The position numbers were made by a program, and so were the translations under genes. Positions 2,235-26,407 of a stretch of DNA of 29,085 nucleotides are shown in pieces; position 1 is the stretch's first letter, and each line of letters starts with the position of its first letter. The notes beneath the pieces were generated by a model, which made no database searches, was not told the origin of the DNA, and was given only the letters and a program-made list of their open reading frames with translations. The stretch comes from a virus (lineage: Duplodnaviria; Caudoviricetes): the IMG/VR virus record IMGVR_UViG_3300048849_000031, positions 1 to 29,085 of that record; one strand, 5' to 3'.

Positions 2235-2236
2235 GC

Positions 2237-2845: not shown

Positions 2846-2854
2846 GAGAGCACC

Positions 2855-3385: not shown

Positions 3386-3425
3386 GGAAGTCCATTTCTT
3401 CCGCAACTCGTAAGGAGGTCATACC

Positions 3426-4181: not shown

Positions 4182-4194
4182 AGGCATCCCGCAG

Positions 4195-7800: not shown

Positions 7801-9264
7801 CAGGAGCAGTCCGTTGCCAACCAGATCAGCAGCCTGATCGCCGCTGCGAACCGAAAGGACACGCAAAGCCTGGAGAACCGCCTGGCCGCGGTCAACGAGC
7901 AATACGAGCGCATCTTCCGCGCCATCGAGAAGTTCCGCGCCTCCGGCGGCTCCTCGATCAGCGGGGTGCCCCTGTCGCAGATCGAGGCGCAGGTCCGGGC
8001 GCAGTTGACCCTGCTCCAGCAGCAGGAGACCCAGAAGTTCTACGAGCAGCAGATGAACGAGTTGGTGCAACAGCGCACCGCCCTGTTCCGGGCTGTTCGC
8101 GATGAGCAGCAAAGCGGGCTGATCGACGGTGCCACGGCCATCGACCGCATCCGGCAGATCAGCGACGACTTGGCGCCCCGCATGCGGGACATCGCCACGC
8201 AAGCCGTCGCCTTCGCCACCAGTCTGAAGGGCGCGGCACCCAACCCGCGCCTGGAAGCGTTCCTGGCGCAGATGCGGCAGGCTGGCGGGCTGACCGGCGG
8301 CACTGCCGGCCCCCGCGCTGCGAGCGCGCCTAGCCCGACGCAGCAGGCGTCCACGCAGGCGGTGGGGGACAGCGAGCGCGAGATCAACCGCCTCTTCCAA
8401 GAGCGCAACGCGACGGTCTCCGCCTTCAACAACCTGGTGCGGGATGGCACCCTCTCCTACACCGAGGCGCAGACCAAAATTCGCGCCGCCTACGAGTCCA
8501 GCGAGCCCGCTATTCAGCAGGCGATCTCGGACTTCCAGAAGACCAACAACTCCGCCTACGAATTGGGCGCGACAACGCAGAGCGCCTTCGACCTGGCGAA
8601 TGCGAAGATCGCGAACTTCAGCAGTAAGGTTGCCTACGTCGATCCGCAGATGCAGCGCATCGGCAAGGCCATCGACGACGCCTTCGTGAACTCGGCGGGG
8701 ACTGCCATCGACAGCATCAGCCAGTCCATCGCTGGCATGATCGACGGCACCATGACGGCGGCCGAGGGGTTCGAGGCAATCGGGCAGGCGGCGCTCCAGA
8801 TGGGCGCGGACATCCTGAAGGCCATCGCCATGGCGATCGTTCAGGAGCAGGCCCTTATCGCGGTCCAGACCATTCGCCGCTCCCTGGGCGCGTTCCACGG
8901 AGGCGGCCTGGTGGGCGGCACGCAGGGTGTCCGACGTACCAACATCGACCCTTCCGTCTTCGCGTTCGCCCCGCGCTACCACAACGGGTCGAATGGCCCG
9001 GTTGGTCTGCGCCCGGATGAGCAGGCAGCCATTCTCCAGAAGGGCGAAGAGGTGCTGACGGCCGACAACCCCCGTAACCTCGCCAACATCGCCAAGGGCG
9101 GCGGGCAGGCAGCCGGCGGTGGTGAACTGGCGATCCGCAACGTGCTGGTGACGGACCCCAACTTCGTGCCGGACGCCATGGCCTCCAGCTCGGGCGAGAA
9201 GGTCATCATCACGGCGATCCGGCGCAACGCGCCCGGCATCAAGCAAGCCTTGGGAATCCGGTAA
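4879..9264 (+). CDS. Tail tape measure protein
   Basis: 1461 aa, Ala/Gln-rich and helical; lambda-type TMP motif QNLGYQINDVFTQLGSG...AQQGGQI; C-terminal FHGGGLVGG...LQKGEEVLT. Confidence 0.95.
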   Translation: MAETSKDIRLLISGELKNARAFKETAALISDLTDEIGKQAQAASRGEASMERLAEAVAELKQAGDSLVAAQGLVDSLRKTDERLVKAAASAEKAQKRFEEFAEKLKGAETVTQAQSDKLARLETAAQKTTTSLANLTRIAAEQRAGLVELGLSADHLAENTEQIVTSARQAGEALASVTKITKDNTEAAREYQGQLQRAAEIRKQQATADEQAARNEQVSARRRVADMESILRANQSSFNDFLAQEARGLQMQERSRAAAREAAEAFRQAGEKAIASARGYTTLADASSRLGPAMTAAAAGVGNILDKASEERKTLSGLEQQLTGLTQVVEGIKGPLKDYEVTLKSIGAIQSEIARKADLVDAFSNQVAAVRAARAEFVAARTEALRLGQAMAAATKPSDELAAANRKAQQNLASASRELTNQFQKAQQLRQTLQQAGLATNNLADTQRRLEAAARQTTTTAGRLTAAFEKHGRSTEGGALFGLSPYALQNLGYQINDVFTQLGSGASIMQTLAQQGGQILQIFPGAFAAIGTYALPLTAALAALVVVVGSLNRAAENAAALRQYSGTLALIPGSAGTTAASLVRVQREITNMGASWEDAGKVVNDAIERSFRPERIAEFAKYAQNLADIKPGLALTDAFKLVADAAQRGYPAVLKLQEATGLFTAAQMEALRAANEQGKALEEQRIVTEALGRTNEAAEKSTGAWTRAWRDFKSALDAVFERLSNTAPVQLAISAFNALAGAISTASRAVKNFVLPDAAASAQDALATAQKRLAEFDRNQAGTAFGGVATSPMAQRARARLLEDVAKAQEALNAAQKEGVKPAEDVTVATERQQAANQRALVATRRRIDGETDLTNEQKVQKAVREALAAAEAEGADAATKEEIARRAREAQEEENRTNDYKRNAAARATAAKDGANSARIEAAAIRARNAAVAEGVTSQKALREIMTSAREEERGRIAQERAGASAAKARLSQEQSVANQISSLIAAANRKDTQSLENRLAAVNEQYERIFRAIEKFRASGGSSISGVPLSQIEAQVRAQLTLLQQQETQKFYEQQMNELVQQRTALFRAVRDEQQSGLIDGATAIDRIRQISDDLAPRMRDIATQAVAFATSLKGAAPNPRLEAFLAQMRQAGGLTGGTAGPRAASAPSPTQQASTQAVGDSEREINRLFQERNATVSAFNNLVRDGTLSYTEAQTKIRAAYESSEPAIQQAISDFQKTNNSAYELGATTQSAFDLANAKIANFSSKVAYVDPQMQRIGKAIDDAFVNSAGTAIDSISQSIAGMIDGTMTAAEGFEAIGQAALQMGADILKAIAMAIVQEQALIAVQTIRRSLGAFHGGGLVGGTQGVRRTNIDPSVFAFAPRYHNGSNGPVGLRPDEQAAILQKGEEVLTADNPRNLANIAKGGGQAAGGGELAIRNVLVTDPNFVPDAMASSSGEKVIITAIRRNAPGIKQALGIR

Positions 9265-11330
9265 TGGCCCTGCGCAACATTCCGACGTGGACCATCCGCC
9301 CCAACTGGTCGAGTGGCGTGCTAGAGCGGCTGGAGTGGCTGACCAGCGTGCTCCAGAGCCCCAGCTACGCCGAGCAACGCATTCAGCTACGGCAGGCCCC
9401 TCGCCGCAGCTTCGAGTTCAGCACCCTCCTGGCTGGGCCGGAGCGCACTCTGTTCGATCTCGGCGTCAGCCGGGTCGGCCGGGGCGACTGGTATCTACCG
9501 ATTTGGCACGATGTGGCGATCACCGACGCCGCAGTCTCGGCCGGCGGCAGCACCACGATCCGGATGGACACCGCCGGCCGGGCCTTCACCGCAGGCGGCG
9601 CCCTGGTACTGATGAGCCGGAAGGCGCTTCAGGCGGAGACGCTGGAGATCGCCGCCGTCTACTCGGACGCCGTGGTGGTGTCCTCCCCGCCGACCCGCTC
9701 CTGGCCGAAGGGAACGCGAGCTTATCCTGCGCGCATCGCCCGGCTCGGCGAGGAGCCGAAGCCCGTCCGCATCAGCGACCGCGTGGAAACCGCGACGGTG
9801 CGCTTCGACGTGCAGGAGCGCGACACGACCCTGGCGGCCCCTTTGCCGGATACCTATCGCGGCTTCCCGGTCCTGCTGCGCCCTCCCAATGAGACAGGCT
9901 CCCTCGATCGCGAGTATGCGCGGCTGCTGAAGGAACTCGACAACGGCACGGGCAAGCCCCTGGTGGTGGACACCGCCGGCTTCCCGACCCGCCTCCAGAA
10001 GATGGCCTGGATGCTGCGCGGGCATGGTGGACACGCCGAGGTGCGGTCCCTGCTGCACGTGCTGCGCGGGAAGTTAGTTCCCGCCTGGATGCCGACCTTC
10101 GCGGCAGATTTCGACCTGGTTGAAACAGCAGAGGCAGGACATGATGCGATCACTGTCACTGGTTGCGGCTTCACTGCTTTTGGTGGCCCCCAGCAGGGCC
10201 GCAGTGATATCCGCATCCAGCTCCGCGACGGAACCAGCTTGTTCACGCGCATCTTGTCTTCCGAGGAGACCAGCGCAGGAGATGAGCGGTTGGTCTTGGA
10301 ATCCCCGCTCCCTCGCGGCTTCTCGGCAGAGCAGGTTCGCCGCATCAGCTTCATGGAGATCATGCGACTGGACCAAGATTCAGTCGAGATTTCACACGAG
10401 ACGGACGAGGCTGGCGTCTCTACAGTCGTCACGACGTTCCGCAGCACGCCGGAGAGCCGCATTGCGGCTGACTGGAGTCCGCCGGAACTGCCGATGAAGG
10501 TGATGACTCCGGGAACTTGCGGCGAGCCGCCTCCTTCAACTCCGCAACCGGGGCCGGTCTCTTGGTTCGCTCACCGGGGCGAATGGCCGGGACAGGAATC
10601 CACCCCGATCGAAAGCGGGGCGGTATATAACGATTACGTCTGGTCCTACGAGAAGATTTCCGACACAGCAGATAGGTTCATAGTCAGTTCGATCGAGGGT
10701 ACAGACGTTACCTTCCCGTTCCTGCGTTTCGACTATGAAGACGAATATTCAAAGCCCGTCTACTTCCGCGAGCCACAAGGCGACACTTGGAAGGTGGTTC
10801 ACCGTGTCAAAATCACGGGACAGCATTACCTGGTTCGGCTCGGCCTCGGCGCGCGGAATGATTTGCAAGACTTCTGGACCAACATGAACTTCCCGGACGT
10901 TACGGTTCAGCACTACGCTGACATCGACCCGGACGGCATACGCGCGCCGTACTACCTCTACGTCCAGCTCGACCGCCTATACAACGGCGGCACGGAGATG
11001 GTGTCCATTGGCACTGAAGCCGCTGTCCCGGACGATGACCCCTGGTACGGCGGCTGGGCGACGAACGTGTTTCGGTTCCCGACCGGGACAGAGATCACGA
11101 TCACCTATCTGTTCAAGGATGCGATGCAGTCGGTTTACGTCAATGGTCTCCTCATGTGGACCAGCGAGGGCGCCTATAACGAGGCCGATCTCCACCTCCT
11201 CAACAGAGTTTACGGCAATGTCGGCCACTTCCAGCCCTTGCACCTTGACGCGGCCACTGCGGACGTTCTGGTGGACTGGCAATACCTGTATTCGCCGATC
11301 CCGTCTGGCGAGATTGGGAACGGCATTTAA
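9264..11330 (+). CDS. Distal tail / tail-tip protein with an extra C-terminal domain
   Basis: First gene after TMP (TAATG overlap); PNWSSGVLERLEWLTSVL...EQRIQLRQAPRRSFE N-terminus typical of this tail type. Confidence 0.75.
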   Translation: MALRNIPTWTIRPNWSSGVLERLEWLTSVLQSPSYAEQRIQLRQAPRRSFEFSTLLAGPERTLFDLGVSRVGRGDWYLPIWHDVAITDAAVSAGGSTTIRMDTAGRAFTAGGALVLMSRKALQAETLEIAAVYSDAVVVSSPPTRSWPKGTRAYPARIARLGEEPKPVRISDRVETATVRFDVQERDTTLAAPLPDTYRGFPVLLRPPNETGSLDREYARLLKELDNGTGKPLVVDTAGFPTRLQKMAWMLRGHGGHAEVRSLLHVLRGKLVPAWMPTFAADFDLVETAEAGHDAITVTGCGFTAFGGPQQGRSDIRIQLRDGTSLFTRILSSEETSAGDERLVLESPLPRGFSAEQVRRISFMEIMRLDQDSVEISHETDEAGVSTVVTTFRSTPESRIAADWSPPELPMKVMTPGTCGEPPPSTPQPGPVSWFAHRGEWPGQESTPIESGAVYNDYVWSYEKISDTADRFIVSSIEGTDVTFPFLRFDYEDEYSKPVYFREPQGDTWKVVHRVKITGQHYLVRLGLGARNDLQDFWTNMNFPDVTVQHYADIDPDGIRAPYYLYVQLDRLYNGGTEMVSIGTEAAVPDDDPWYGGWATNVFRFPTGTEITITYLFKDAMQSVYVNGLLMWTSEGAYNEADLHLLNRVYGNVGHFQPLHLDAATADVLVDWQYLYSPIPSGEIGNGI

Positions 11331-11342
11331 GGGGCTACGGTC

Positions 11343-12158
11343 ATGTCTTTCTCGGAGAGAGAGGTTTCAAACTACAGCGGCCAGCCGGTCCTTCTCTACG
11401 ACTTCTCCCGCGGGGCGATGCACTGGCGGTATTGCACGGCGGCCGAGGACATCACCCTGGAGGGCGCAAACTACGAGGCAGTTCCGGTCTCGGACGGCGG
11501 TGTGGTGCAGTCCGGCGACACCAATGCCGACACCTTTGAGGTGACGCTGCCGGCGGCGTCTGCGGTGGCCCAACTCTATGCCGGCACCCCACCGTCCGAT
11601 CCGCTGACCCTGGTGGTACGCCGGCTGCACTTCGGCGACGCAGATGCGCCCGCTATCTGGAGCGGACGGGTTCTGACTTGCACGCAAAATGATGAAGCAC
11701 AGGCGACGCTGGCCTGCCAGTCGCTCATCAGCCTGTTCGCCACAGATGGTCTGCGTCTCGCCTGGCAGCGGACCTGCCCACATATGCTCTACGACAGCGA
11801 GTGCCGCGTGGACAAAGCCGCCTATGCCGTGCGTCTCGTGGTCTCTGTCGCGGCGACCCTGACGCTGCAACTGGACGGCGCCGACGCTTTCGAGAGCGGC
11901 TACTTCGCGGGCGGCTGGATCGAGTGGGAGGTGGCGCCCGGCACCCTGGAGCGCAGGATGGTCGAGGCCCATGTCGGAAATCAGTTCGGCATGGCGGGCG
12001 TCACCGATGGGATTACGGCGGGCCTCTCCGTCACTGCCTATCCTGGCTGTAGCCGCACCGCAGATGTCTGCAACGGGCGGTTCAACAACATCGGCAACTA
12101 CGGCGGCATCCTGCACCTGCCCGGCAAGAGTCCCTTCAACGGCGAAGCCGTGTTCTAG
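11343..12158 (+). CDS. Tail-tip hub protein (DUF2163 / Phage_BR0599-like, Cys-containing)
   Basis: WQRTCPHMLYDSECRV and AYPGCSRTADVCNGRFNNIGNYGG motifs. Confidence 0.85.
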   Translation: MSFSEREVSNYSGQPVLLYDFSRGAMHWRYCTAAEDITLEGANYEAVPVSDGGVVQSGDTNADTFEVTLPAASAVAQLYAGTPPSDPLTLVVRRLHFGDADAPAIWSGRVLTCTQNDEAQATLACQSLISLFATDGLRLAWQRTCPHMLYDSECRVDKAAYAVRLVVSVAATLTLQLDGADAFESGYFAGGWIEWEVAPGTLERRMVEAHVGNQFGMAGVTDGITAGLSVTAYPGCSRTADVCNGRFNNIGNYGGILHLPGKSPFNGEAVF

Positions 12159-12167
12159 GAGGACGAT

Positions 12168-12413
12168 ATGGACCCCTATTCCGCCGTAATCGCCGTCGTT
12201 CTGATGGTGGCCTCCTACCTGATTACTTCCTCCATGATTACCAAGCCGGAGCCGGTGAAGCCCAATACCATCGACGACTTCGACTTTCCGACATTCGAGG
12301 AGGGCACCCCGCAGGCGGTGGTCTTCGGCGATTGCTGGACGGCGGACTGGATGGTGCTTGCCTATGGAGATTTCCGCGTTGATGCAATAAAGGGGAAGGG
12401 AGGTAAGAAGTGA
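12168..12413 (+). CDS. Small tail assembly protein
   Basis: AGGAGG RBS; hydrophobic N-terminus followed by DFDFPTFEEGTPQAVVFGDCW; synteny. Confidence 0.75.
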   Translation: MDPYSAVIAVVLMVASYLITSSMITKPEPVKPNTIDDFDFPTFEEGTPQAVVFGDCWTADWMVLAYGDFRVDAIKGKGGKK

Positions 12414-12425
12414 GGGAAGTCGGCG

Positions 12426-12641
12426 ATGCCTGATGAGCCGATGGCTACCGTCCGGCACCTTCGGGAAGCCCGCGTCTGCGCTGCCGGCGCACGCGGGTTC
12501 TTTCGCGACATGGGCCTGTCATGGAACGACTTCATCTCTATCGGTGTGCCGGCCTCCGCCCTGGAGGCGACCGGCGACCCCTTCGCCCTGAAGGTGGCGG
12601 CCTGCGCCCGCGAGGAGGCAGCCCATGGGCGGAAGCAGTAA
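12426..12641 (+). CDS. Small tail assembly protein
   Basis: CAAGARGFF...GLSWNDF...GVPASALEATGDPFA; overlaps the start of the next tail gene. Confidence 0.75.
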   Translation: MPDEPMATVRHLREARVCAAGARGFFRDMGLSWNDFISIGVPASALEATGDPFALKVAACAREEAAHGRKQ

Positions 12642-14925
12642 GAAACAGACCATCGGCTACCGCTACAGCTTCTTCATCCACATGGGGCTGTGCCGCGGCC
12701 CGGTCGATGAGATTGTGCAGGTCAAGATCGACGACCTGGTGGCCTATGACAAGCCGCTGACGGACGACAAGGATGACGTGCTGATCCTGAAGCACGACTT
12801 GTTCGGCGGCGACGAGAAGGAGGGCGGCGTCGTCGGCGGCATGTCTGTTCTGATGGGAAAGGCCGATCAGGACATCAGTACCCGCACCGTGACCGATGTG
12901 CGGATGTACGGGAACAAGGGCGCTACCGGCGATGCAGTCGGGCAGCTTCCCATCAAGAGTTTCCTGACCGGGCTGGTATCATCCTTCCGGGGCATCACCA
13001 CCGTCTTCTATCGCGGCCAGATCAGCGTCAACAACCCCTACCCCAAGACGTGGAAGTTCCGCGTTCGCCGCACGAACAAAGGCTGGCAGGGTGATGCACC
13101 CTGGTATCCCGATAAAGCGGCGATCTGGATGTATGAGGGCGACCAGATCATCCAGGCGATGAACCCTGCACACATCATCTATGAGTGCATCACTAACCAG
13201 GCGTGGGGTAAGGGTCTGCCGGCCAGTGCGATTGACGAAGCCAGTTTCGTCTCGGCGGCCAACACCCTTTGCGCCGAAGGCTTCGGCCTCTGCCTGCGCT
13301 GGACGCGGACGAACAAGCTCAGCGAGTTCATCCAGAGCGTCGTCGATCACGTCAACGCCATGCTCTATGTGTCGCGGCAGACCGGGCTGCTGACGCTGCG
13401 GCTGATCCGCGAAGACTATGACGCGGCGTCGCTACCCCTCTTCGATGTGGATTCTGGTCTCCTCTCCATCACAGAGGACCAGAAGGCTTCGCCCAACGAG
13501 TCGGTTAACGAGATCGTCCTGACCTACCACTCTCCGATTGATGACGGCGACAGAATGGTCAGGGCGCACAACCTAGCGGCGTTTCAGGCTGACGGCGCGG
13601 TGCGGAGCACCAAGAGCAACTACGCCGGCCTGCCAACCGCCGAGTTGGCCCTGCGCGTGGCGCAGCGCGACCTGCGCCTTCAGTCTGCCGGCCTGCGACG
13701 GCTGAAGCTGGTGATGGACAGGCGGGCATGGAAGATCGAGCCGGGCGGGGTGTTCCGAATTAGGGACGTTCGTAGAGGCATCGACAACATCGTCATGCGC
13801 GCCGGCCGGGTGGAAGACAGCACCCTGACGGACGGCAAAATCTCTGTCGCTGCCGTGCAGGACGTGTTCGGCCTGCCGGCCACCAGCTTCATGGGATACC
13901 AGCCGAGCCAGTGGGTGCCGCCCGACCGCTCCGCCAGGGTCCCTGAGCAGCGGCGCCTGGTGGAAGCCAGCTATCGCGACATCTTCCAGGGTGTCGGCGC
14001 CAGCAGTGCGGCGGAGTTCCCTATCGACGGCGCCGCGTTCATGTCGCTGGCGCAGCAGCCAACGACCCTCTCGCCGACCTACACGCTGCACAGCCGGGCG
14101 GAGGGCGAAGACTACGGTGCAGGCACCACCTCCGCCTGGACCCCAACCGGCCTCCTGGTCGCCGCCATTGGTCCAGGCGCCCGTAGCATCTTCGTCGAGG
14201 ACGTGACCGGCTGGGGCTATATCACCGCCGGCTCCGCTGCGCTGATCGACGATGAAATGGTGCGCGTGGACGCCTTCAATGCCGCTACCGGCGAGATCGT
14301 CATCGCACGCGGTTGCGTCGATACCATCCCCGCCGGCCATGCGGTCGGCGCACGCATCTGGTTCTTTGATGAGAATGCAGGTTCGGACGAACGCGATTAC
14401 GTCGCCGGGGAGACTGTTCACGTCAAGGTCTTGACGCAGACCAGCAGCGCGACCCTGCCGCTCGGCAGCGCACCAGAGGACAGCATCACTCTCGATCACC
14501 GCTTCTCCCGGCCCTACCCGCCTGGCGCGGTGCAGGTCAACGGCCTCCCCTTCTACGCGCCGGATGTGCAAGCTGGTGATCTCGCTTTCACCTGGTCGCA
14601 CCGGAACCGCGTGTCGCAGCAGGATCAGGTCGTTGATCACGCTGCCGGCAGCGTCGCACCGGAGGCGGGCACCACCTACACGATCCGGCTGTATGGCGAC
14701 ACCGGAGCACTGGTTCGCACGCAGGCCGGCATCACCGACACCGCCTGGACCTACGACGCCGCGACGATCGAGGCGGATGGCGTGACGACCGAGGTAGGCG
14801 TCGAGATCGAGTCTATCCGCGACGGGCTCGCCTCCTATCAGACCTACAGCTTCAAGGTGCCCCGCGTCCGCCGCGGCGGCTTCAACCGCGCGTTTAACCG
14901 CGCCTTCAACAACGGAGCGGCGTGA
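12625..14925 (+). CDS. Central tail-tip protein (Phage-tail_3-like)
   Basis: 766 aa; MGGSSKKQTIGYRY, LFGGDEKEGG, NNPYPKTWKFRVRR, MNPAHIIYEC and ARGCVDT motifs. Confidence 0.85.
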   Translation: MGGSSKKQTIGYRYSFFIHMGLCRGPVDEIVQVKIDDLVAYDKPLTDDKDDVLILKHDLFGGDEKEGGVVGGMSVLMGKADQDISTRTVTDVRMYGNKGATGDAVGQLPIKSFLTGLVSSFRGITTVFYRGQISVNNPYPKTWKFRVRRTNKGWQGDAPWYPDKAAIWMYEGDQIIQAMNPAHIIYECITNQAWGKGLPASAIDEASFVSAANTLCAEGFGLCLRWTRTNKLSEFIQSVVDHVNAMLYVSRQTGLLTLRLIREDYDAASLPLFDVDSGLLSITEDQKASPNESVNEIVLTYHSPIDDGDRMVRAHNLAAFQADGAVRSTKSNYAGLPTAELALRVAQRDLRLQSAGLRRLKLVMDRRAWKIEPGGVFRIRDVRRGIDNIVMRAGRVEDSTLTDGKISVAAVQDVFGLPATSFMGYQPSQWVPPDRSARVPEQRRLVEASYRDIFQGVGASSAAEFPIDGAAFMSLAQQPTTLSPTYTLHSRAEGEDYGAGTTSAWTPTGLLVAAIGPGARSIFVEDVTGWGYITAGSAALIDDEMVRVDAFNAATGEIVIARGCVDTIPAGHAVGARIWFFDENAGSDERDYVAGETVHVKVLTQTSSATLPLGSAPEDSITLDHRFSRPYPPGAVQVNGLPFYAPDVQAGDLAFTWSHRNRVSQQDQVVDHAAGSVAPEAGTTYTIRLYGDTGALVRTQAGITDTAWTYDAATIEADGVTTEVGVEIESIRDGLASYQTYSFKVPRVRRGGFNRAFNRAFNNGAA

Positions 14926-16589
14926 TGCCCGGAACTCCCGGCCCGAACCTGGGTCTTGTCACCGGCTGGCAGCAGGACGAAGATGGCTGGGGCGAGGAGG
15001 GGTTCAACCCCAACTTCGACAAGCTCGATGCCCTTGTCCACCTGTCGGTGCTGTCGGCCACGCAAGCGGCGCCGCCCGCCTCGCCGGCCCACGGGGACCG
15101 CTACATCGTCCCTGCGGCGGCCTCCGGCGCCTGGGCAAACCACGGAACGCACATCGCGGTCTACCGCGAGGGAGTCTGGGCCTTCTACGAGCCACAGCGC
15201 GGGTTCCGCGCCGACGTGCAGGACCAAGCTCCGATCCCCTTCTCGGTCTTCGACGGTACGGCCTGGGCGCCGGAGCCCGGCATCGCGGACGCGCCGAATG
15301 ATGGCCAGGGCTATGTCCGCCGGGAGGGCGAATGGGTGCCGGCCCCCACCGGTGGTGACGGGGCAGGTATTGGGGAGGCGCCGGAGGACGGGAATCTCTA
15401 CGGTCGCCGAGACGGCTCCTGGGAGCAGATCGAGCATCCCGAGACCAGCGGGATTGAGGAGGCGCCGGAGGATGGGCAGGGCTACATCCGTATGGATGGC
15501 GGCTGGGTCGCGGCGCCTACTCCCGGCGACGGCGGTAACGGGGTCGAGGAGGCTCCGGAGGACGGGACACCCTACTCGCGTCAGGACGGCACATGGGTGC
15601 CGTCGCCCACTGGCGGGGGAGGCGATGGCGGTAATGCGGTCGAGGAGGCTCCGGAGGACGGGAAGCCTTACGCGCGCCAGGATGGCGGCTGGGTAGAGAT
15701 TTCAACCGGCGACGGAGGGGACGGCAATGACGATGCGCCGTTCACCGCGAGGACGTGGCGAATCGCCATCACCGCTAGCGCGGGCGGCTCAAATTTCGGC
15801 ACTCGCATCGCCGCATTCGACTTGCTGGACGCCGGAGGCAACAGGATAGACATGTCGGCGGCCACTGTTACGGGGTCGGCGCCGCTATCAACTGCCAATT
15901 CTGCTCAAATGGCTGTAGACGGAGACGATCAGACTTGGTTCCGCTCCAATGCGTCTCCCTCTGCGATCTCGCCTATCTTCTTGCAGGTGGAGTTTCCTGG
16001 CGCTGTTAAGGTCTCGGCGGTTAGACTGGTTGTGCAGGAGAATGTCGGCGGTGCGCCGAGAGATTTTACAGTATTCGGCGACGGCGTTGTGTTGCTGTCC
16101 TTGGCGCAAGTGGCTGATTGGGCACTTGGCGTTCCCAAGGTGTACCGCGTTTACGGCGGCAGCTTCTTTGTGCAGGACGCGCCGAAGGACGATAAGACAT
16201 ACAGCCGCAGGAACGGCCAGTGGGTAGAAGCAACTGTTGCCGCGAGCGCACCGTTCGATGTTGGCCTCTTCATCCCTGGCGTTGTGCCGGCCGCTAACGC
16301 CCTGCTCTCCCGCTACGTGTTCACGCGGGCAGTCGCCTTCGCTGCGAACCTAACGGGCTCGGTAGGCTACGCAGGCACGCCGCCGACCGCCGGCACGACT
16401 CTGGACCTGCGCAAGAACGGCACGTCCATCGGCACGGTGACTTTCGCCGCAGGAGCCAGCACCGCGACGTTTACCACCGCTGCGGCAGTGTCCTTCGCTG
16501 CCGGCGATCGCTTGTCTGTCTACGCCCCGGCTGCTGTGGATGCCGCCCTGGCAGACATCTCGGTAACGCTCGCGGGGACAAGGAGCTAG
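14922..16589 (+). CDS. Tail fibre: DUF2793-like N-terminus, six foldon-like repeats, discoidin/F5-8C-like domain
   Basis: LDALVHLSVLS...PPASPAHGDRYIVP...GAWA N-terminus; repeated (E/D)APxDGxxYxRxxGxW; AVDGDDQTWF...LQVEF...APRDFTV. Confidence 0.8.
   Translation: MMPGTPGPNLGLVTGWQQDEDGWGEEGFNPNFDKLDALVHLSVLSATQAAPPASPAHGDRYIVPAAASGAWANHGTHIAVYREGVWAFYEPQRGFRADVQDQAPIPFSVFDGTAWAPEPGIADAPNDGQGYVRREGEWVPAPTGGDGAGIGEAPEDGNLYGRRDGSWEQIEHPETSGIEEAPEDGQGYIRMDGGWVAAPTPGDGGNGVEEAPEDGTPYSRQDGTWVPSPTGGGGDGGNAVEEAPEDGKPYARQDGGWVEISTGDGGDGNDDAPFTARTWRIAITASAGGSNFGTRIAAFDLLDAGGNRIDMSAATVTGSAPLSTANSAQMAVDGDDQTWFRSNASPSAISPIFLQVEFPGAVKVSAVRLVVQENVGGAPRDFTVFGDGVVLLSLAQVADWALGVPKVYRVYGGSFFVQDAPKDDKTYSRRNGQWVEATVAASAPFDVGLFIPGVVPAANALLSRYVFTRAVAFAANLTGSVGYAGTPPTAGTTLDLRKNGTSIGTVTFAAGASTATFTTAAAVSFAAGDRLSVYAPAAVDAALADISVTLAGTRS
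15282..16230 (+). repeat. Six foldon-like coding repeats in the fibre gene
   Basis: Copies begin near 15282, 15369, 15453, 15543, 15639 and 16170; each resembles T4 foldon [20 protein letters not shown]. Confidence 0.8.
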
Positions 16590-16592
16590 ACC

Positions 16593-16691
16593 ATGATTGC
16601 GGTGTTCCCTGTGTTCGGCCCTGGGCGCCGCCCGATTGCGAACCAAGGCGCGCTCTATCCCGGTGGCTCCTTCAGCCAGAGCCAGCAATGA
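16593..16691 (+). CDS. Possible 32-aa small protein
   Basis: AAGGAG RBS and ATG just after the fibre stop; MIAVFPVFGPGRRPIANQGALYPGGSFSQSQQ. Confidence 0.3.
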   Translation: MIAVFPVFGPGRRPIANQGALYPGGSFSQSQQ

Positions 16692-16769
16692 CAACGCCTA
16701 TGCCGGTCGATTCGCCGCTACGCAAATCTATCCCGACACCGCACCGCGATTCCGTCTGAGAGGTGAGCC

Positions 16770-18758
16770 ATGACAATCCGATACCTCGATCCCGAGAACG
16801 GCAACGATGCAAACGATGGCCTGTCTTTCGGCACCCGCAAGAAGACCTTCGGCTCGGCCACCGCGGGGGCGAAGGCAGGCGACGAACTGCGCGTCATCGC
16901 TTCTCCTGAGCCCACTCTCGTTGGCTCGGCAACGTGGACCGACAACAGCCGCTTGATCGCGCTGCCGCCCGGCACGAACAAGGAAATCCCGGTAGGGCCT
17001 ACCGCGTGGACACCCTCCGCCAATGTCACCGCGACGGTCACTACCTCCGCGCTGAAGCATGGCGCAAGCATCTACCTGCTTTTCGCCAACGGGTTCACCA
17101 CGGGGAAAGCCGCTTACCGAGCACTCGCTGAGCCGCTCGACCTGTCCACGTTCCAATCTCTCTCGGCGTTCTTCCAGTCCACCGTACCGCTCGCGGCGAA
17201 CACCTTGGAACTTCACCTCTGTAGCGATCTTACCGGCGACGTACCCGTGGCGGTGTTGCCCCTCTCGGCAGGTGTAGGAGAGACTCTTGGCACCAGTCGC
17301 TTTATCACGGTGTTCCGAGACCTCGGAGCCCCGATTTCCGAGGCCGTCCGGTCCATCTCGATCTGGGCGAACACCGACCCCGGCTTCGTGGCGGTGTATC
17401 TCAACAATCTTGTCGCCTGCAAAGCGGCGTCTGCACCCGACCATGTGTCGCACACGACGCTGCTCGGGAAGAACACTGAACAGGAGTGGGAGTGGTACAG
17501 CCTCGGCGGCATTGACGACAGCGGCGCGCATACCGGCGGGGCATCCACCTCTACGGTAGGACGGCCTTACCGCGGCGTCTCTGAGTCGGTGCCCACTTTC
17601 GCGCTCCAGCCGATGTTCCTTGGAGGGGTCCCGAACGACCGGCTTTTGTCCGGCGCGTCGTCGTCTCTCACGCAAATCTCGGGCGGCTGGGACCGCGAGA
17701 GCATGGCGCAACAGACAGGAGAATCATGGCTCACGGGCCGGTACAACTCAACCACAGGGCTCGGGTCAAGCGGCTCCAACGCCTTGGGATTCTTGATCTC
17801 CAACCTCGGCTTCGCCCATGTTGCCGGGCCTGCTCTCTCGGAAAAGAACTGGCAGATAGACTTGCTGGGCATCCTTGCTTGCGACCAGCAGATCGCGGAA
17901 CCGGCCTCTGCCTCAACAGGCGGCGGGTCCTACCCGAAGATATGGAAGGTGCGGCAGGTATGGGGCGGAACGACGCCTTTGACAGACCCCGCTATCAACC
18001 AACAAGGGCAGGCAGTTTCCGTCTTAGCGGCCGAGCGCGTCCACGGTTTCCCTGGCGCCACTCAACCCGCGGTCTTGCTGAACGGGGACGAGCAGGTAGA
18101 GCGCCACCATCGTCTCGTCCGCGTTGACAACAATCGAACCTGGGGCGTGGGAACAGGGGTAGGCACCCGCGCTTCTCTCAGCGGCACGATCTTAGAGAAT
18201 AACGACACGGCTGATCTCTATGTCGCGCTGGGCAGTGTGCTGAGTGCGAGCGGCTGTGACATGCGAAGCGCGAAAAAGGTGGCGTTCAGTTCGCTCTCCG
18301 ACCGATGTGCTGCGGCCTACCTCAGCTACGCAGGCCCGGATGGGACCGTGCATGAGACGGTTCGGAACTCCTATACGGTCATCACAGACCGCGAGGTCCG
18401 CCACGCGGCCTCCGGGTTCTCCTGGAAGCTGACGCAGGTGGAGGAGCCGCCTTTCACGGCCGCGCTTCCCTCGGAATACGAGGTGGGCCTTGTGGCGGTA
18501 CGAGCCGGACAGCCCGTGACGATCAGCGCGTGGCTGCGGCGGAACCAGCCCGACATCAACGTCGGTCTTCGGGTTCGGGAGGATTGGGTGACCGGCGTTC
18601 AGGCGCAGAACACGTGGATGACGGCCGCGAGCGATGCGTGGGAGCAAGTCAGTCTGTCTTTCACGCCTACGGCCGAGGGCGTAGTCTCGATCTGTCTTGC
18701 CACCTTCGGCGGCTATAACCGATCCGCTTGGATCGACGACCTGGCGGTCTCGCAATGA
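16770..18758 (+). CDS. Putative virion accessory / receptor-binding protein (pectin-lyase-like N-terminal motif, carbohydrate-binding-like C-terminus)
   Basis: YLDPENGNDANDGLS...KKTF N-terminal motif; C-terminal VTISAWLR...WEQVSLSFTP...WIDDLAV; located after the fibre gene. Confidence 0.6.
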   Translation: MTIRYLDPENGNDANDGLSFGTRKKTFGSATAGAKAGDELRVIASPEPTLVGSATWTDNSRLIALPPGTNKEIPVGPTAWTPSANVTATVTTSALKHGASIYLLFANGFTTGKAAYRALAEPLDLSTFQSLSAFFQSTVPLAANTLELHLCSDLTGDVPVAVLPLSAGVGETLGTSRFITVFRDLGAPISEAVRSISIWANTDPGFVAVYLNNLVACKAASAPDHVSHTTLLGKNTEQEWEWYSLGGIDDSGAHTGGASTSTVGRPYRGVSESVPTFALQPMFLGGVPNDRLLSGASSSLTQISGGWDRESMAQQTGESWLTGRYNSTTGLGSSGSNALGFLISNLGFAHVAGPALSEKNWQIDLLGILACDQQIAEPASASTGGGSYPKIWKVRQVWGGTTPLTDPAINQQGQAVSVLAAERVHGFPGATQPAVLLNGDEQVERHHRLVRVDNNRTWGVGTGVGTRASLSGTILENNDTADLYVALGSVLSASGCDMRSAKKVAFSSLSDRCAAAYLSYAGPDGTVHETVRNSYTVITDREVRHAASGFSWKLTQVEEPPFTAALPSEYEVGLVAVRAGQPVTISAWLRRNQPDINVGLRVREDWVTGVQAQNTWMTAASDAWEQVSLSFTPTAEGVVSICLATFGGYNRSAWIDDLAVSQ

Positions 18759-20467: not shown

Positions 20468-21289
20468 GTGGTGAACGCAGCACCTCGCCTCGCTTATTCC
20501 GGCCCGGCGCGCAAGCTGACGGAGATCGACTTCACCCGCGCCGCCCAGCGGTCGGGCCTGGGGGTGGCTATCATCAAGGCTGTAGACTTAGTGGAGAGCG
20601 CCGGCTCTGGTTTCCTATCTGACGGCAGCGGTCGGCCGGTTATCCTGTATGAAGCGCACCGCTTCTCAAAAGAGACGGGCGGCGACTTCGACCGGAACTA
20701 CCCGAAGCTGTCTGTGCCGTCCTGGGACCGCTCTCTCTACCTCGGCGGTGCTCGCGAATATGAGCGGCTGAACGCCGCCGCCTTACTGGACGAGCAGGCC
20801 GCCCTGAAGGCCACCTCCTGGGGTCGCTTCCAGATTCTCGGCTCGAACCACTCGGCGGTCGGATACCCCGACGTGCGGAGCTACGTCGAGGCGATGACCC
20901 AAAGTGAGGGCGCGCACCTCGACGCCTTCATTGGCTTCATCCAGGCCAACAACCTCGTCCGCCCGCTGAAGGCGCTCGATTGGGCGACCTTCGCCCGCGG
21001 CTACAACGGCACGCAATACCGCCTGAACAAGTATGACGAGAAGCTGGCCGAAGCCTACGCGCGCCTTACCGGCTGGCCTATCCCCATGCCGGCCGCTCTT
21101 CGCATCGGCGCCTCCGGGGAGCCCGTGAAGCAGCTTCAGCAGGCACTCATCAAGGCCGGCTGGCGCCTGGCGGTCGATGGGCAATTCGGGCGGGCCACCG
21201 AGATCGCGGTAGAGCAGTTCCAGGCGAGCCGTGGCCTCGTCTCGGATGGTATCGCTGGCCCCCTCACCTACGCGGCGCTGGGTCTGTAG
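20468..21289 (+). CDS. Endolysin: N-acetylmuramidase (DUF3380) plus C-terminal PG_binding_1 domain
   Basis: VESAGSGF, ILYEAHRF, SWGRFQILGSN, FARGYNG, YDEKL; VKQLQQAL...VDGQFGRATE...DGIAGPLT. Confidence 0.93.
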   Translation: MVNAAPRLAYSGPARKLTEIDFTRAAQRSGLGVAIIKAVDLVESAGSGFLSDGSGRPVILYEAHRFSKETGGDFDRNYPKLSVPSWDRSLYLGGAREYERLNAAALLDEQAALKATSWGRFQILGSNHSAVGYPDVRSYVEAMTQSEGAHLDAFIGFIQANNLVRPLKALDWATFARGYNGTQYRLNKYDEKLAEAYARLTGWPIPMPAALRIGASGEPVKQLQQALIKAGWRLAVDGQFGRATEIAVEQFQASRGLVSDGIAGPLTYAALGL

Positions 21290-21371: not shown

Positions 21372-21386
21372 GTTCTCATTCTGTTC
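21372..21386 (+). promoter_or_regulatory. Alphaproteobacterial LexA (SOS) box
   Basis: GTTC-tcattct-GTTC is an exact GTTC-N7-GTTC match, in an AT-rich intergenic patch upstream of 21423. Confidence 0.75.
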
Positions 21387-21422: not shown

Positions 21423-21662
21423 GTGGCTGCGGCGAATTACAACAGGCCCAGGCCGGTAGACCCGATCTGGTATCGGTCTACGCACTCAATACGCATCACC
21501 TGCACCTGCGGCCGTGAGCCCTTCGAGCAGAGGCTTGATGCCTTCGCGGCTGACCGGGCGATCCCTGCCAGTACTAAGCTCGGCGACCTGATCCGCCGGC
21601 TGCGCTGCCAGCAATGCGGCAGCAGGCCCTCAGCCGAAATCGTGGATCGTCGCCTTTGGTGA
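21423..21662 (+). CDS. Small Zn-ribbon protein, probably SOS-regulated
   Basis: ITCTCGR...LRCQQCGSR Cys pairs; 79 aa. Confidence 0.7.
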   Translation: MAAANYNRPRPVDPIWYRSTHSIRITCTCGREPFEQRLDAFAADRAIPASTKLGDLIRRLRCQQCGSRPSAEIVDRRLW

Positions 21663-21718: not shown

Positions 21719-22267
21719 CTAGGCTGGCCCGCCACAAAGCCCGCTCTGCCGGCTGATCAGGAGCCCGCTGGCCGCACGCCAGCCCTCTCCTGCCCTCTCC
21801 CAGCCCTCCAGGCGCGCGAGCTCGGCCAGTTGCTCCTCCGGCGTCCGCACGGCCGCGACCGGGCCTGACACCTTCTTCCTGATTAGATTCTTAGAGAAAA
21901 CTGGTTCTGCCACGATCTCTGAACGGGGGGTCGGCAGAAGCGTGTAGGCGTGGCACCAGCGGTAGCCGTGGCCCGGCACTCGGATCGGGAAGCGCCGGAC
22001 CTGGATGTAGCCGGCCGCCCGGAGGCGCTGGATAGCCGCCTGGACGGTGCCCAGCGCACAGCGCGCCAAACGGGCCAGCGCCCGCATGCCGGGGTTGCAT
22101 TGCCCTGTCCTCCAGTTCTGGTGGCTGACCAGGGCGGCGTAGACCGCGGCGTCAAGCGGGCTGTGTCGCAGCTTCTTGGTGCCGGCGTGCCGGCGGGTCG
22201 GCCCGTGGGCGAGTCTGGCAAGGGCATCGGTATGCGCCGCCGCTTGGGCGCGCGTGATGAGCAGCAT
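21719..22267 (-). CDS. Winged-helix (HTH_36-like) protein, probable plasmid replication initiator
   Basis: AVYAALVSHQNWRTGQCNPGMRALARLARCALGTVQAAIQRLRAAGYI wHTH; AGGA RBS; downstream of the par operon. Confidence 0.65.
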   Translation of the reverse strand: MLLITRAQAAAHTDALARLAHGPTRRHAGTKKLRHSPLDAAVYAALVSHQNWRTGQCNPGMRALARLARCALGTVQAAIQRLRAAGYIQVRRFPIRVPGHGYRWCHAYTLLPTPRSEIVAEPVFSKNLIRKKVSGPVAAVRTPEEQLAELARLEGWERAGEGWRAASGLLISRQSGLCGGPA

Positions 22268-22330
22268 CCTGGTTCCTGTCGTCGTTTGACCGACAGCCCG
22301 GACAAGCCTCCCCTGATCGCAATTTGGCGC

Positions 22331-22359
22331 TTGCGTCGGTCGGCTCGTCAGGGCAGGAT
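22331..22359 (+). promoter_or_regulatory. sigma70-type promoter for an antisense RNA
   Basis: TTGCGT-N17-CAGGAT, oriented opposite to rep. Confidence 0.5.
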
Positions 22360-22365
22360 GCTTGC

Positions 22366-22444
22366 ACTCTTCAAGTGCGGCTCTGCCCTGTGCAGGCTGT
22401 CGAGAAAGTCTCCCGGTTGGCGCCGTGGAGACTTTTTTCGTTTC
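22366..22444 (+). ncRNA. Putative counter-transcribed copy-number control RNA (about 80 nt)
   Basis: Promoter plus intrinsic terminator on the + strand within the par-rep intergenic region; 5' end estimated from the -10 position. Confidence 0.5.
22405..22438 (+). terminator. Intrinsic terminator
   Basis: AAAGTCTCC-CGG/loop/CCG-T-GGAGACTTT stem running into a T6 tract. Confidence 0.75.
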
Positions 22445-22532
22445 GGGGCTCTAGCTGGTCAAAGACTCCTCTAAAGGGGCGCCTACAGTGCCCGAGCGGG
22501 CTGGCTGTAGCAACGCCGTAATTTCAAGGCCC

Positions 22533-22628
22533 TGCCAGCACTCCCTCATGCTGCGGCTCCAGCATAGCGGCACGACCGCGTGATGCGAAGCTGCGGTGGT
22601 GGCATGCTGGCATGCTGGCATTGCAGCA
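22533..22628. repeat. Phased 8-bp repeat array 1 (putative centromere)
   Basis: Twelve in-phase degenerate units including TGCCAGCA, TGGTGGCA, TGCTGGCA x2 and TTGCAGCA. Confidence 0.7.
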
Positions 22629-22630
22629 CG

Positions 22631-22666
22631 AGAAAAGCCCGCATGCTGGTCTCCCGGCATGTGGGC
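22631..22666 (-). terminator. Probable terminator after the RHH gene
   Basis: Minus strand reads GCCCACATGCCGG-GAGA-CCAGCATGCGGGC-TTTTCT; two mismatches in the stem. Confidence 0.45.
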
Positions 22667-22672
22667 GTGATG

Positions 22673-22963
22673 TCAGTCGAAGCGGTTCATGCCTCGCTTG
22701 GTGAACAAGTCGTTCAAAGCCTCCAGGGCAAGCGCCTCCAGGCTGGCGCCCTCCTGTATCTTCAACAGCATGAGCTGCTGCCACGCGCCCGGCGGCATGT
22801 GGATCGTCATCTTGCGCTTGCCGACCCTCGACGGCGGCGGTGCAGTTGCGGCCGGTTCCGCTGCGGGTGCGGGTACAGGCGCAGGTTTCGGTTCGGGGGC
22901 AGGCGGACGAGTCAGGCCGGCCGTGAAGCTGTAGGCCGGCTGCTCCTTCTTCACTGCTGTCAT
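22673..22963 (-). CDS. Small ribbon-helix-helix centromere-binding protein (type Ib partner of ParA), 96 aa
   Basis: ATGA overlap with the parA stop; Pro/Ala-rich flexible N-terminus, then SRVGKRKMTIHM...QQLMLL...EALNDLFTKRG. Confidence 0.75.
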   Translation of the reverse strand: MTAVKKEQPAYSFTAGLTRPPAPEPKPAPVPAPAAEPAATAPPPSRVGKRKMTIHMPPGAWQQLMLLKIQEGASLEALALEALNDLFTKRGMNRFD

Positions 22964-23082
22964 GCTGCGATGGCCTTGCGCTGCTTTGCTGCCCTGCGGC
23001 TTTGCTGCGATGCTGGCATGCTGCTCTGCTGTCGTGCTGCTTCTGTGGCCTGCTGGAGTGCTGCCATGCCATCCTGCTGGCA
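22955..23082. repeat. Phased 8-bp repeat array 2, inside the parA 3' end
   Basis: Sixteen consecutive 8-mers, most starting TGCTG (TGCTGTCA, TGCTGCGA, ... TGCTGGCA). Confidence 0.85.
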
Positions 23083-23697
23083 TATCCAGTTCCAAAGGGC
23101 GTCGATCTCGGCCGCCGCCTGGCCGCGTGCGCCCCACTCGAAAGCGCCCCGGCCGCTCGGGAGCGGGTGGCGGAAGTCCATGCGCAGCCCGACCCGTGCC
23201 GGCACCATATCAGCGCCGCCGTCGATAAGGGCCTTCTCCACCGCGTCGGTGATGCCGGAGGATTGGATGGCGCCGTTCAGGACCACGTATGCAGTCTTCC
23301 GGGCGATCTGCGCCGCAACCATGGAGGCGCTGAGCGCACTGAGGTCATAGTCGGACGGCTGGCAGGGAACCAGCACCAAGTCGCTGACCTGCGCCGCCTG
23401 GACGCCGACCGTATCAGCGCGGGGTGGCGTGTCGAGGATCACCAACCCGCAGCCCTGCTCGCGCGCCTGCTGGAGCAACTGCGGGAGGGCCGGAGCCTGC
23501 GACGCAACGACCTGGGGCATGGAGCCCTTGCCGAGCGTGGCTTCCCGCCGCTGCCCCCATGACCACGCAGTCGCCTGCGGATCGAGGTCGATGATGAGCG
23601 GCCCGAGCCCGAACCGCGCCGCCTGGACCCCCAAATTGGTCGCGAGCGTGCTTTTGCCGCAGCCCCCCTTCGAGGACACGAGCGAAATTACCAGCAT
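22960..23697 (-). CDS. parA: ParA-family Walker partition ATPase without N-terminal HTH (alternative start 23712)
   Basis: Deviant Walker A KGGCGKST, IDLDPQ, Walker B ILDTPP, DLVLVPCQPS, AAAEIDALW. Confidence 0.92.
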   Translation of the reverse strand: MLVISLVSSKGGCGKSTLATNLGVQAARFGLGPLIIDLDPQATAWSWGQRREATLGKGSMPQVVASQAPALPQLLQQAREQGCGLVILDTPPRADTVGVQAAQVSDLVLVPCQPSDYDLSALSASMVAAQIARKTAYVVLNGAIQSSGITDAVEKALIDGGADMVPARVGLRMDFRHPLPSGRGAFEWGARGQAAAEIDALWNWICQQDGMAALQQATEAARQQSSMPASQQSRRAAKQRKAIAA

Positions 23698-23800
23698 CCC
23701 AACATCCCCCATTGATGCAGCGCCAGCATGACAACAAGCTGTTGTCCTGGCAAGCCATCATGGAGTCATGCTGTTGTTCTGGGATGCTGGCATGCTGGCA
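23689..23800. repeat. Phased 8-bp repeat array 3, over the parA start and upstream region
   Basis: Fourteen in-phase degenerate units, ending TTCTGGGA TGCTGGCA TGCTGGCA. Confidence 0.75.
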
Positions 23801-24451
23801 TCAGTGTCCGGCTTTGTGCGCCGGGCGGCTCGCCACCTCTGCCTGAAGACGCAGTTCATAGGCTTCGCGGCGAAGAGTGTAAGCCTGCTGGCCGAGTGTC
23901 TGCGCCTGCTGCTCCATCTCGGCAGCCTTTCGCTCGCAAGCGATGGCGCGATCCAGGAGTTCCTTTACGGCCGGGTTGTGGAGGTCAAAGGCTTGGGCCG
24001 TGGACAGCATGCCAGCATACCAGCTTAGCAGCACTGCCGCAGTGATCCTGCCCAACCGCATCCGCTCTGTCGGGACACCGAGGAGATGGCATAGCCGCAT
24101 GCGGGCGCTGGACAGCATCGCCGCCGCGTCCCTGGCCTTCTCGATCTCGAAGTTCAGCTTGAACGTCACCTGGTCGGCCTCCTTGCTGTTGGTGGCGAGA
24201 CCGAGCGCGTAGACATGCACTCGACCCATCCGGTGGCCGCGAGTGCGGTTGCAGCCGCCACATGCGACCACCAGGTTGTCTTCTTCGTTCGTGCCGCCGA
24301 GCACGCGGGGGAGGATGTGCTCTAGGGTGGCTCGCCGGGGGTGTCCGGGCGGGAGGTCATCGGCGGTGCGGATGCCGCAATAGCAGCAGCGCCAGTTCTG
24401 CATGCCGGCCAGCCGGCGTAGCTTCTCACTGATCGGCGACGGGGCGGACAT
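23801..24451 (-). CDS. HNH endonuclease with a C-terminal helical extension
   Basis: RCCYCG...ATLEHILPRVLGGTNEEDNLVVACGGCNRTRG. Confidence 0.85.
   Translation of the reverse strand: MSAPSPISEKLRRLAGMQNWRCCYCGIRTADDLPPGHPRRATLEHILPRVLGGTNEEDNLVVACGGCNRTRGHRMGRVHVYALGLATNSKEADQVTFKLNFEIEKARDAAAMLSSARMRLCHLLGVPTERMRLGRITAAVLLSWYAGMLSTAQAFDLHNPAVKELLDRAIACERKAAEMEQQAQTLGQQAYTLRREAYELRLQAEVASRPAHKAGH
24002..24041. repeat. Phased 8-bp repeat array 4, inside the HNH gene
   Basis: GGACAGCA TGCCAGCA TACCAGCT TAGCAGCA CTGCCGCA, in the opposite orientation to array 2. Confidence 0.6.
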
Positions 24452-25825: not shown

Positions 25826-26407
25826 TCAAGGACGGCCGCAGGGACGCGCCAGGTGGCCGGTCTTCGGACAGGGCGGAGGATCGCTGTCGTTGGTGTCCCA
25901 CGTCATCGCACAGCGGAGACAGCGCATCTGGTCGGAGAACTGAGTTCCTTCGCAGTCCTGCTCCGACATGCTGTTATGCTGCGATGCTGGCATGACAGCT
26001 TCCTGCTTTCGCACCATGCGGGCATGCCATCGGACCAGCGTGCGGCTGAACTTCTTCTCGCCATGTTTCGCGATATCGACCGCCTGGTAGACGACGGTGG
26101 GCAGGAAGGCAGGCCGACTGGACCCGACGTTGGTGTGGTCGAGGACCCGGTACTCTCTGTCGTCATGCAGCCACACGGAACCCAGCTCGGGCATCTCCAG
26201 ATCGCGGCTCAACCGGCTTTCCCGCTCGGGAGTCAGCACGTCCACCTTAGCCCGGCGGTCGTAGGGCACCCACTGCTCCTGGCCGATCCCGTTGAAGACG
26301 CGGCCACCGATGCGGAAGCTGCGATCCGGCTTCACCCTGCCGATGATGACGCAGGAGACCGAGTTGTCGGCCTCCGTCAACATCGCGTAGTCGCCCTCGA
26401 TGAACAT
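25826..26407 (-). CDS. Mosaic hypothetical protein (DUF1653-like middle, Cys-rich C-terminus)
   Basis: AAGGAGG RBS before the ATG at 26407; EYRVL...TVVY...SRTLVRW; SDQMRCLRCAMTWDTNDSDPPPC. Confidence 0.65.
   Translation of the reverse strand: MFIEGDYAMLTEADNSVSCVIIGRVKPDRSFRIGGRVFNGIGQEQWVPYDRRAKVDVLTPERESRLSRDLEMPELGSVWLHDDREYRVLDHTNVGSSRPAFLPTVVYQAVDIAKHGEKKFSRTLVRWHARMVRKQEAVMPASQHNSMSEQDCEGTQFSDQMRCLRCAMTWDTNDSDPPPCPKTGHLARPCGRP
25961..26040. repeat. Phased 8-bp repeat array 5, inside a CDS
   Basis: CTCCGACA TGCTGTTA TGCTGCGA TGCTGGCA TGACAGCT TCCTGCTT TCGCACCA TGCGGGCA TGCCATCG GACCAGCG. Confidence 0.7.

Follow-up and report, generated by a model that had tools for sequence, protein, structure and literature searches.

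A Chi/Nazgul-like phage fragment with a plasmid-type partition and replication module: a probable phage-plasmid

Introduction

Can a phage with the capsid and tail of the Chi/Nazgul-like siphoviruses persist in its host as a plasmid? The question is raised by the virus record IMGVR_UViG_3300048849_000031 (Duplodnaviria; Caudoviricetes), the whole 29,085 bases of which (hereafter the window) were analysed; it is a fragment of about half the size of its 55–60 kb relatives, and the terminase, portal and replication arm lie outside it. Behind its virion and lysis genes the window carries parA, a gene for a small ribbon-helix-helix (RHH) protein, a structured intergenic region and a gene for a winged helix-turn-helix (wHTH) protein, here named rep. 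An earlier note, made from the sequence alone, had interpreted this cassette as a plasmid replicon on a Chi/Nazgul-like phage; the open reading frames (ORFs) that it described agree with those found here, and its interpretation gains support from the context in which the cassette occurs among relatives. We consider it probable that the window derives from a temperate phage-plasmid, likely kept as a low-copy plasmid in a presumably Roseomonas-like host. Virion and lysis genes are present, an initiator and a partition system of plasmid type are recognised by homology and context, and all module parts (parA, the RHH gene, the leader and rep) are intact.

The partition genes and their repeats

The parA gene (22960..23712, minus strand, read 23712-22960; PHROG ParA, E 9e-31) encodes a short Walker-type protein of 250 residues, in which the position of the Walker A motif at residues 15–22 leaves no space for a helix-turn-helix (HTH) at the N terminus. 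Downstream of it lies the gene of a putative centromere-binding RHH protein (22673..22963, minus strand; 96 residues) with a Pro/Ala-rich N-terminal tail, whose match to PF20605 (E 4e-9) exceeds the cut-off and which is 30–37% identical to ParA-adjacent RHH proteins at locus L002 and on the Roseomonas contig C18 described below; it found no match among PDB sequences. The combination supports assignment to type Ib partition, as the note had proposed, under the definition given in the available part of PMC3074162. The note's description of a co-oriented cassette holds in that parA, the RHH gene and rep all lie on the minus strand, opposite to the virion/lysis operon.

The 8-bp autocorrelation maxima of the whole window (0.57, against a mean of 0.27 and a standard deviation of 0.05) fall at 22921-23081, 22521-22660 and 23700-23806. 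The flanking repeat arrays previously described are therefore real, although they surround the par operon and not rep. None is assigned to a strand: one is located upstream of parA, in the promoter/centromere position of type Ib systems (23713..23806), where RHH binding is predicted; another, of 16 in-phase 8-bp units, is contained in the 3' end of parA (22954..23081) and is translated as a C-terminal tail of about 40 residues absent from the relatives' ParA proteins (about 210–216 residues); and a third, a putative centromere, lies downstream of the RHH gene (22530..22665). Satellite arrays of the same par-type repeat occur within an HNH gene (24003..24042) and a 202-residue early ORF (25968..25991), which argues for a long residence of the module in the phage. 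In most par-bearing relatives examined the enriched par-flanking repeat differs from that of the window (the repeat of C18 scored below the cut-off and was recognised by eye), and the circular phage contig C17, which has no parA, has no enriched repeat. Such differences fit cognate RHH–centromere pairs of type Ib.

A ParB-like early gene at 27202-28257 is distant from parA and has a counterpart in phage Carli; it probably belongs to the phage lineage and has nothing to do with the partition module. As a partner of ParA it was rejected, since Carli carries a ParB-like gene and, in the 49 of its 57 kb examined, showed no such module.

The replication protein

The rep gene (21719..22267, minus strand) encodes a predicted initiator of 182 residues with matches to HTH_36 (E 8e-8) and to PHROG replication initiation (E 2e-5). 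Word-based searching retrieved eight proteins, itself included, and a profile search 18 proteins at E < 1e-10; direct tblastn of the window Rep returned nothing in PLSDB or INPHARED, links to these collections coming only via relatives. Through a longer form the Rep family connects to 47 PLSDB plasmids, including pAgK84, where the homolog is annotated 'replication protein A', and the 15.4-kb NT-26 plasmid. HHalign of a 24-sequence Rep alignment with pAgK84 RepA gave 94% probability (E 1.4e-7, 87 columns), and a 13-sequence profile from which both the window Rep and pAgK84 RepA had been left out scored 79.5 bits for RepA and 49.2 bits for the window protein, against a maximum of 9.8 bits in 1000 shuffles. 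The similarity to initiators on which the earlier interpretation depended is thus borne out, and by these profile comparisons the window Rep is a remote homolog of pAgK84/pTAR-type RepA.

The fold check that had been recommended for this protein was less specific. An AlphaFold model (pLDDT 81.6) confirmed an extended winged helix, and the structural search retrieved only unspecific proteins of this fold, from which neither DnaB-N (Z 7.8) nor RctB domain 1 (Z 6.5) stood out. A Rep tree, used only for grouping as it had not converged and drew long-branch warnings, places the window with C17, L002 and metagenomic proteins. No RepC family was found among the eight Pfam matches of the window Rep (E up to 1) or in NCBIfam. 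HTH_36-type Rep proteins are described on small Paracoccus plasmids in the available parts of PMC3832669 and PMC6209633.

A conserved motif and the most AT-rich 40-nt stretch of rep (21873..21925, minus strand) mark, by analogy with repC, a candidate oriV. In the window and 28 of 30 relatives the AT-richest 40 nt fall at nt 340–390 of the gene, 3' of the conserved motif, a signal confounded by Lys codons, which could themselves produce AT-richness. A further family member, without parA or leader, follows the terminase of a small head-only, primase-encoding and satellite-like IMG/VR element (L001 9971-10480).

The same Rep matches invite a different explanation, that a lytic Chi-like phage carries plasmid cargo, or that the wHTH protein is a λ O-like lytic initiator or a regulator, with no stable plasmid state in either case. 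The PHROG matches of Rep are to phage replication initiation and O-like families, no INPHARED phage matches the window Rep, and the cultured Chi-like phage Carli yielded no parA, RHH or rep match in the 49 of its 57 kb that were examined. Against it, every part of the module is intact, its GC content is close to that of the window (0.664 for the module, 0.651 for the whole window), its cognate repeat has spread into two phage genes, and a lytic initiator would be useless on the non-phage plasmids where most Rep-family members sit. This alternative is accordingly held to be quite improbable.

Relatives on Roseomonas plasmids and phages

In the Roseomonas-type genus, 17 of the 23 genomes searched carry the Rep family (37 matches, up to five copies per genome), as do eight of 151 genomes of an order-wide sample, three of these eight with longer forms. 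The family-bearing contigs of fetched size (n = 20) measure 5–87 kb. Among 30 fetched loci, a count that includes previously seen loci and four PLSDB plasmids, parA lies within 1.5 kb of rep in 28, co-oriented in 16 and divergent in 12, and the order par–par–RNA–rep is therefore not that of a fixed operon. One such divergent arrangement, on a 77.8-kb non-phage contig of Pseudoroseomonas globiformis, adjoins a Rep of 54% identity; a second, broken rep copy on that contig (L006 6082-6410) adjoins a RepA_C/ParA replicon. A protein query with C18 led to six Roseomonas plasmid records with a family member, parA being adjacent in each; none has an assigned replicon type (untyped by MOB-suite), and the annotation of the three inspected in full lists no further Rep. 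Plasmid p1318-7 (L048 25392-34644), which has a Rep-family replicon, also bears a type I-D CRISPR-Cas locus by annotation. On Sinorhizobium and Rhodovastum plasmids that carry the wider Rep family, the parts inspected contain no phage genes.

Roseomonas sp. USHLN139 carries the family on three contigs, C17, C18 and C19, each with a 111-nt terminal overlap and hence circular, and each with a near-complete virion set and no PF00589 match (0/3). C17 (47.5 kb) encodes a Rep 48% identical to that of the window, placed directly after the lysis genes as in the window, together with a polymerase and a primase of its own, and lacks parA; the gene order of C18 is exactly that of the window, parA–RHH–the same leader–Rep. 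A single isolate thus harbours three circular phages that differ in virion type and all encode a Rep-family member. Two further contigs with the replicon, G407:C24 and G417:C17, retain C19-like virion genes only in pieces, which suggests phage-plasmids on the way to becoming plasmids by decay.

These genomes also bear on the possibility that the phage integrates by means of an integrase encoded outside the window, in the other half of its genome, with the module there only for an episomal phase or as a second option. As had been reported, the window shows no integrase, either among its 34 scanned ORFs or by tblastn with five recombinases, in a fragment of about half the genome; an integrase or a repressor may lie elsewhere in it. 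The Chi-like phage phiTHAF39, with 13 virion genes syntenic with the window, has an integrase, and the circular myovirus contig G404:C77 joins Rep and parA to a tyrosine recombinase. On the other hand, the genomes of C17 and C18 close into full circles, have the leader class of the window and gave no integrase match, and where a circular element encodes a tyrosine recombinase, the enzyme may serve to resolve dimers. Integration as the principal lifestyle is, on this balance, considered unlikely.

Several further observations weigh against a phage-plasmid. C19 encodes a 246-residue small serine recombinase and G404:C77 carries another; a terminal overlap of at least 37 nt was seen in only two of 20 further contigs; the six Roseomonas plasmids are recorded in PLSDB as linear, their gene table being incomplete; and contig G001:C28 and the Rhodovastum plasmid hold a second Rep besides the family member. 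When an isolate is assembled, induced or lytic DNA may also give rise to a circular phage contig, and the best fold matches of Rep are TFIIE/TFE and MarR/Fur regulators. We nonetheless retain the phage-plasmid as the probable identity of the window.

The rep leader and its predicted antisense RNA

The 405-nt region between the RHH gene and rep folds better than all of 200 shuffles (z −4.95), in agreement with the intergenic hairpins already described. On the plus strand an antisense promoter is predicted at 22331..22359 (−35 at 22331-22336, a 17-nt spacer, −10 at 22354-22359), followed by a counter-transcribed RNA of about 73 nt (22366..22438, plus strand) in which a variable 5' tail precedes a small hairpin and then a terminator hairpin whose loop is of U-turn type. 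The same architecture recurs in the ten leaders of class I: the promoter pattern on the opposite strand is kept in 10/10 and is followed by 70–78 nt in which the 5' tail varies, the small hairpin recurs and the loop of the terminator hairpin is invariant, and in nine of the ten the antisense strand folds better than the sense strand. Both sides changed in 10 of 26 pairs, compared with 3.2 ± 1.2 when shuffled and at most four in slid controls, a result somewhat inflated by relatedness and by taking the structure from the window itself. A conserved leader hairpin overlapping the antisense −35 (22318..22335, minus strand) is 100% paired, with two of five pairs changed on both sides, and is also present in the pAgK84 leader. 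An antisense RNA in this region, as earlier suggested, is therefore supported as a prediction by leader conservation and compensatory changes.

C17 and C18 have the antisense terminator loop in common and differ in their 5' tails, and a second leader class comprises PLSDB plasmids and C19. By inspection, the landmarks of the window leader, namely its antisense terminator, −10 and −35/hairpin, recur in that of pAgK84. Rfam gave no match for the leader RNA at E up to 5, counter-transcribed RNA families included, and a promoter/terminator scan based on the E. coli consensus missed the antisense unit. The terminator-loop pattern was dropped as a family marker, since its 23 IMG/VR loci included none with Rep and represent generic terminators; this strict pattern is also present in two of 401 family genomes.

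How such an RNA might act on rep is a reasoned prediction drawn from folding models. Three elements of the rep mRNA (minus strand) would take part: Z, the Shine-Dalgarno sequence and start codon (22262..22273); Y, within the complement of the antisense promoter (22348-22361); and X, covered by the counter-transcribed RNA (22383-22390). In the nascent mRNA X pairs with Y with a probability of 0.48–0.9 in 9/9 relatives (0.73 in the window), and when the target of the RNA is blocked Y pairs at least 40 nt downstream in 9/9 (0.46–0.86). Other results speak against a switch of this kind. The full-length window mRNA favours the 'off' fold by 3.9 kcal/mol even without antisense RNA, so that the switch would need kinetic control through co-transcriptional folding; X:Y pairing is retained in the full-length free mRNA of only seven of nine relatives, and not in the window. 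Modelled shifts in start-site accessibility are modest (a first equilibrium test in the window left it unchanged, 0.26 vs 0.25), Y:Z complementarity exceeds shuffles in only three of nine relatives, and Y could owe its conservation to its other role as the antisense −10 box.

A model of maintenance, and what would follow from it

Taken together these parts suggest how the module may work. Rep would bind an origin within its own gene, beside the AT-rich stretch, and replication would start there. The antisense RNA of about 73 nt would pair with the nascent rep mRNA and release Y from X; freed Y would pair over the Shine-Dalgarno sequence and start codon, and Rep output would drop as copy number rises, with the variable 5' tail of the RNA setting incompatibility. 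Dimers of the RHH protein would cover the 8-bp arrays, keep the par promoter repressed and bring in ParA to carry out segregation in the type Ib manner. DNA damage might lead to the lytic cycle via a LexA-controlled small gene.

A wider proposal, over which our belief and doubt are nearly balanced with doubt slightly ahead, is that an unannotated, antisense-RNA-controlled replicon family forms the common engine of Roseomonas plasmids and also of an overlooked guild of phage-plasmids, captured by several unrelated virion types including the Chi/Nazgul-like one. Swappable 5' tails and replicon-specific RHH repeats would let three phages coexist per cell, and the translational switch would extend to pAgK84/pTAR-type plasmids.

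Each part of the module is of a known class; novelty seems to lie in the occurrence of this replicon together with a Chi-like virion, in its distribution across several Roseomonas virion types and in the predicted, unannotated antisense switch. The literature search yielded nothing combining 'phage-plasmid' with 'Roseomonas' and, among titles and the beginnings of abstracts, nothing on a Rep-family replicon on phages or on an antisense RNA for pTAR/pAgK84, an RNA that older work may describe. Of the related studies, the available part of an Azospirillum preprint (10.64898/2026.09.14.751567) concerns iteron replicons, and HTH_36 is not mentioned in the available parts of 10.1101/2024.09.03.610885; phage-plasmid catalogues in paper supplements could include some of the relatives.

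The Chi-like virion lineage is known mostly from lytic isolates, and the reading favoured here, if true, would add plasmid lysogeny to it. It would also name the replicon of Roseomonas plasmids that MOB-suite leaves untyped, a gap by which replicon-based screens miss such phage-plasmids. For pAgK84/pTAR-like replicons it would offer a testable antisense control absent from Rfam, and for the genetics of Acetobacteraceae a set of compatible small replicons.

The virion and neighbouring genes

The virion operon (368..18758, plus strand) runs from the major capsid protein to the tail tip and fibre and was assigned by homology and synteny. Its major capsid protein shares 41–44% identity with the capsid proteins of Carli, R16L and BcepNazgul, and the comparison with Casjensviridae that had been called for, in which the 34 window ORFs were queried, found 12 virion genes syntenic with Carli and 13 with Marinobacter phage phiTHAF39. 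A syntenic head–tail module of Chi/Nazgul type is thus present, and the gene comparisons make 'Chi/Nazgul-like' a fair label for the virion, even as the tail-tip protein finds its best matches in B3-like Pseudomonas phages (44%). The tail fibre (14922-16589) combines DUF2793 and a weak carbohydrate-binding domain with fibritin C-terminal repeats, encoded by a 96-nt tandem at 15525-15725; the 662-residue ORF 3' of it (16770-18758) has no Pfam or PHROG match. The late operon ends with an endolysin (20468..21289, plus strand) in which domain and PHROG scans recognised muramidase and peptidoglycan-binding parts. On the far side of the module the early genes (23801-29050) occupy the minus strand and run in its direction.

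Between lysis genes and module lies a Cys-rich 79-residue ORF (21423..21662, plus strand), preceded by a GTTC-N7-GTTC motif (21372..21386, plus strand), a putative alphaproteobacterial LexA box. The motif occurs twice in the window against 0.53 expected, an excess that is weak on its own; comparable motifs are found close to rep in C17, C18, C19 and G407:C8, and for the ORF itself tblastn against a small set gave weak matches (E 4e-5 to 2e-3) among the small ORFs of G407:C8, C19 and C18. Motif and ORF are candidates for an SOS switch or antirepressor, the ORF being possibly SOS-induced.

Since the record stems from a metagenome assembly and no full-length close relative of the phage was retrieved in IMG/VR and metagenome scans (matches at L004 and L005, E 2e-5 to 5e-4, were discarded as noise), a chimera of phage and plasmid contigs has to be considered. 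A single, separately assembled contig of run X1 covers 18009-29058 with zero differences and even depth, joining lysis genes and module; as X1 is possibly the sample from which the record came, the match verifies no more than the assembly, and the run yielded no extension of the window contig. The Rep of C17 occupies the equivalent position after the lysis genes. A chimera therefore seems a very remote prospect.

Comparison with known systems

Among phages, BcepNazgul, Carli, R16L and phiTHAF39 share the capsid and tail gene order of the window, at an identity of only 29–51%. The par/rep module was not seen in the examined part of Carli, and none is annotated in phiTHAF39. The likeness of C17, C18, C19 and G404:C77 is of the opposite kind: they share the Rep family, and C17 and C18 the leader class as well, on unrelated virions, those of C17 and C19 being HK97-like siphoviruses and those of C18 and G404:C77 contractile-tailed.

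With the type Ib systems described in the available part of PMC3074162 (TP228 ParFG, pSM19035 δ/ω and pCXC100) the window shares the short Walker ParA, the RHH protein with its flexible N-terminal tail and the repeats upstream of parA; it differs from them in the additional arrays in the 3' end of parA, downstream of the RHH gene and in two phage genes.

The earlier note had seen in the cassette a repABC-like layout built from different parts. An RHH protein in place of RepB and a counter-transcribed RNA, here as a predicted RNA upstream of the initiator, are indeed found, and repABC replicons (p42d, pSymA, Ti) likewise have, between the partition genes and the initiator gene, an antisense RNA that acts through mRNA refolding, which the predicted switch would parallel, and an oriV within the initiator gene near an AT-rich region, for which the window offers a candidate only (PMC3155836, available part). 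The resemblance is nevertheless one of analogy. The window has no RepC match, its ParA lacks the HTH and scores 27.5 bits with the repABC RepA model TIGR03453 against a cut-off of 348, the orientation of par is variable in its Rep family, and its block is predicted to be translational, whereas in p42d the outcome is termination at an induced terminator (same source).

The closer likeness is to plasmids of the pAgK84/pTAR type, among which the 15.4-kb NT-26 plasmid is built like pTAR (PMC3673622, available part). These share with the window a homologous winged-helix Rep, the leader landmarks (as seen by inspection in pAgK84) and a nearby ParA with a small gene. They differ in being conjugative or mobilisable plasmids and not phages, and pAgK84 differs further in the length of its RepA (236 residues vs 182, with 23% identity over 87 columns) and in its gene order, the RHH gene lying directly upstream of repA and parA downstream. 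The replicon of the window is accordingly better described as one of pTAR/pAgK84 type joined to a type Ib partition system; to call it a rebuilt repABC fits less well.

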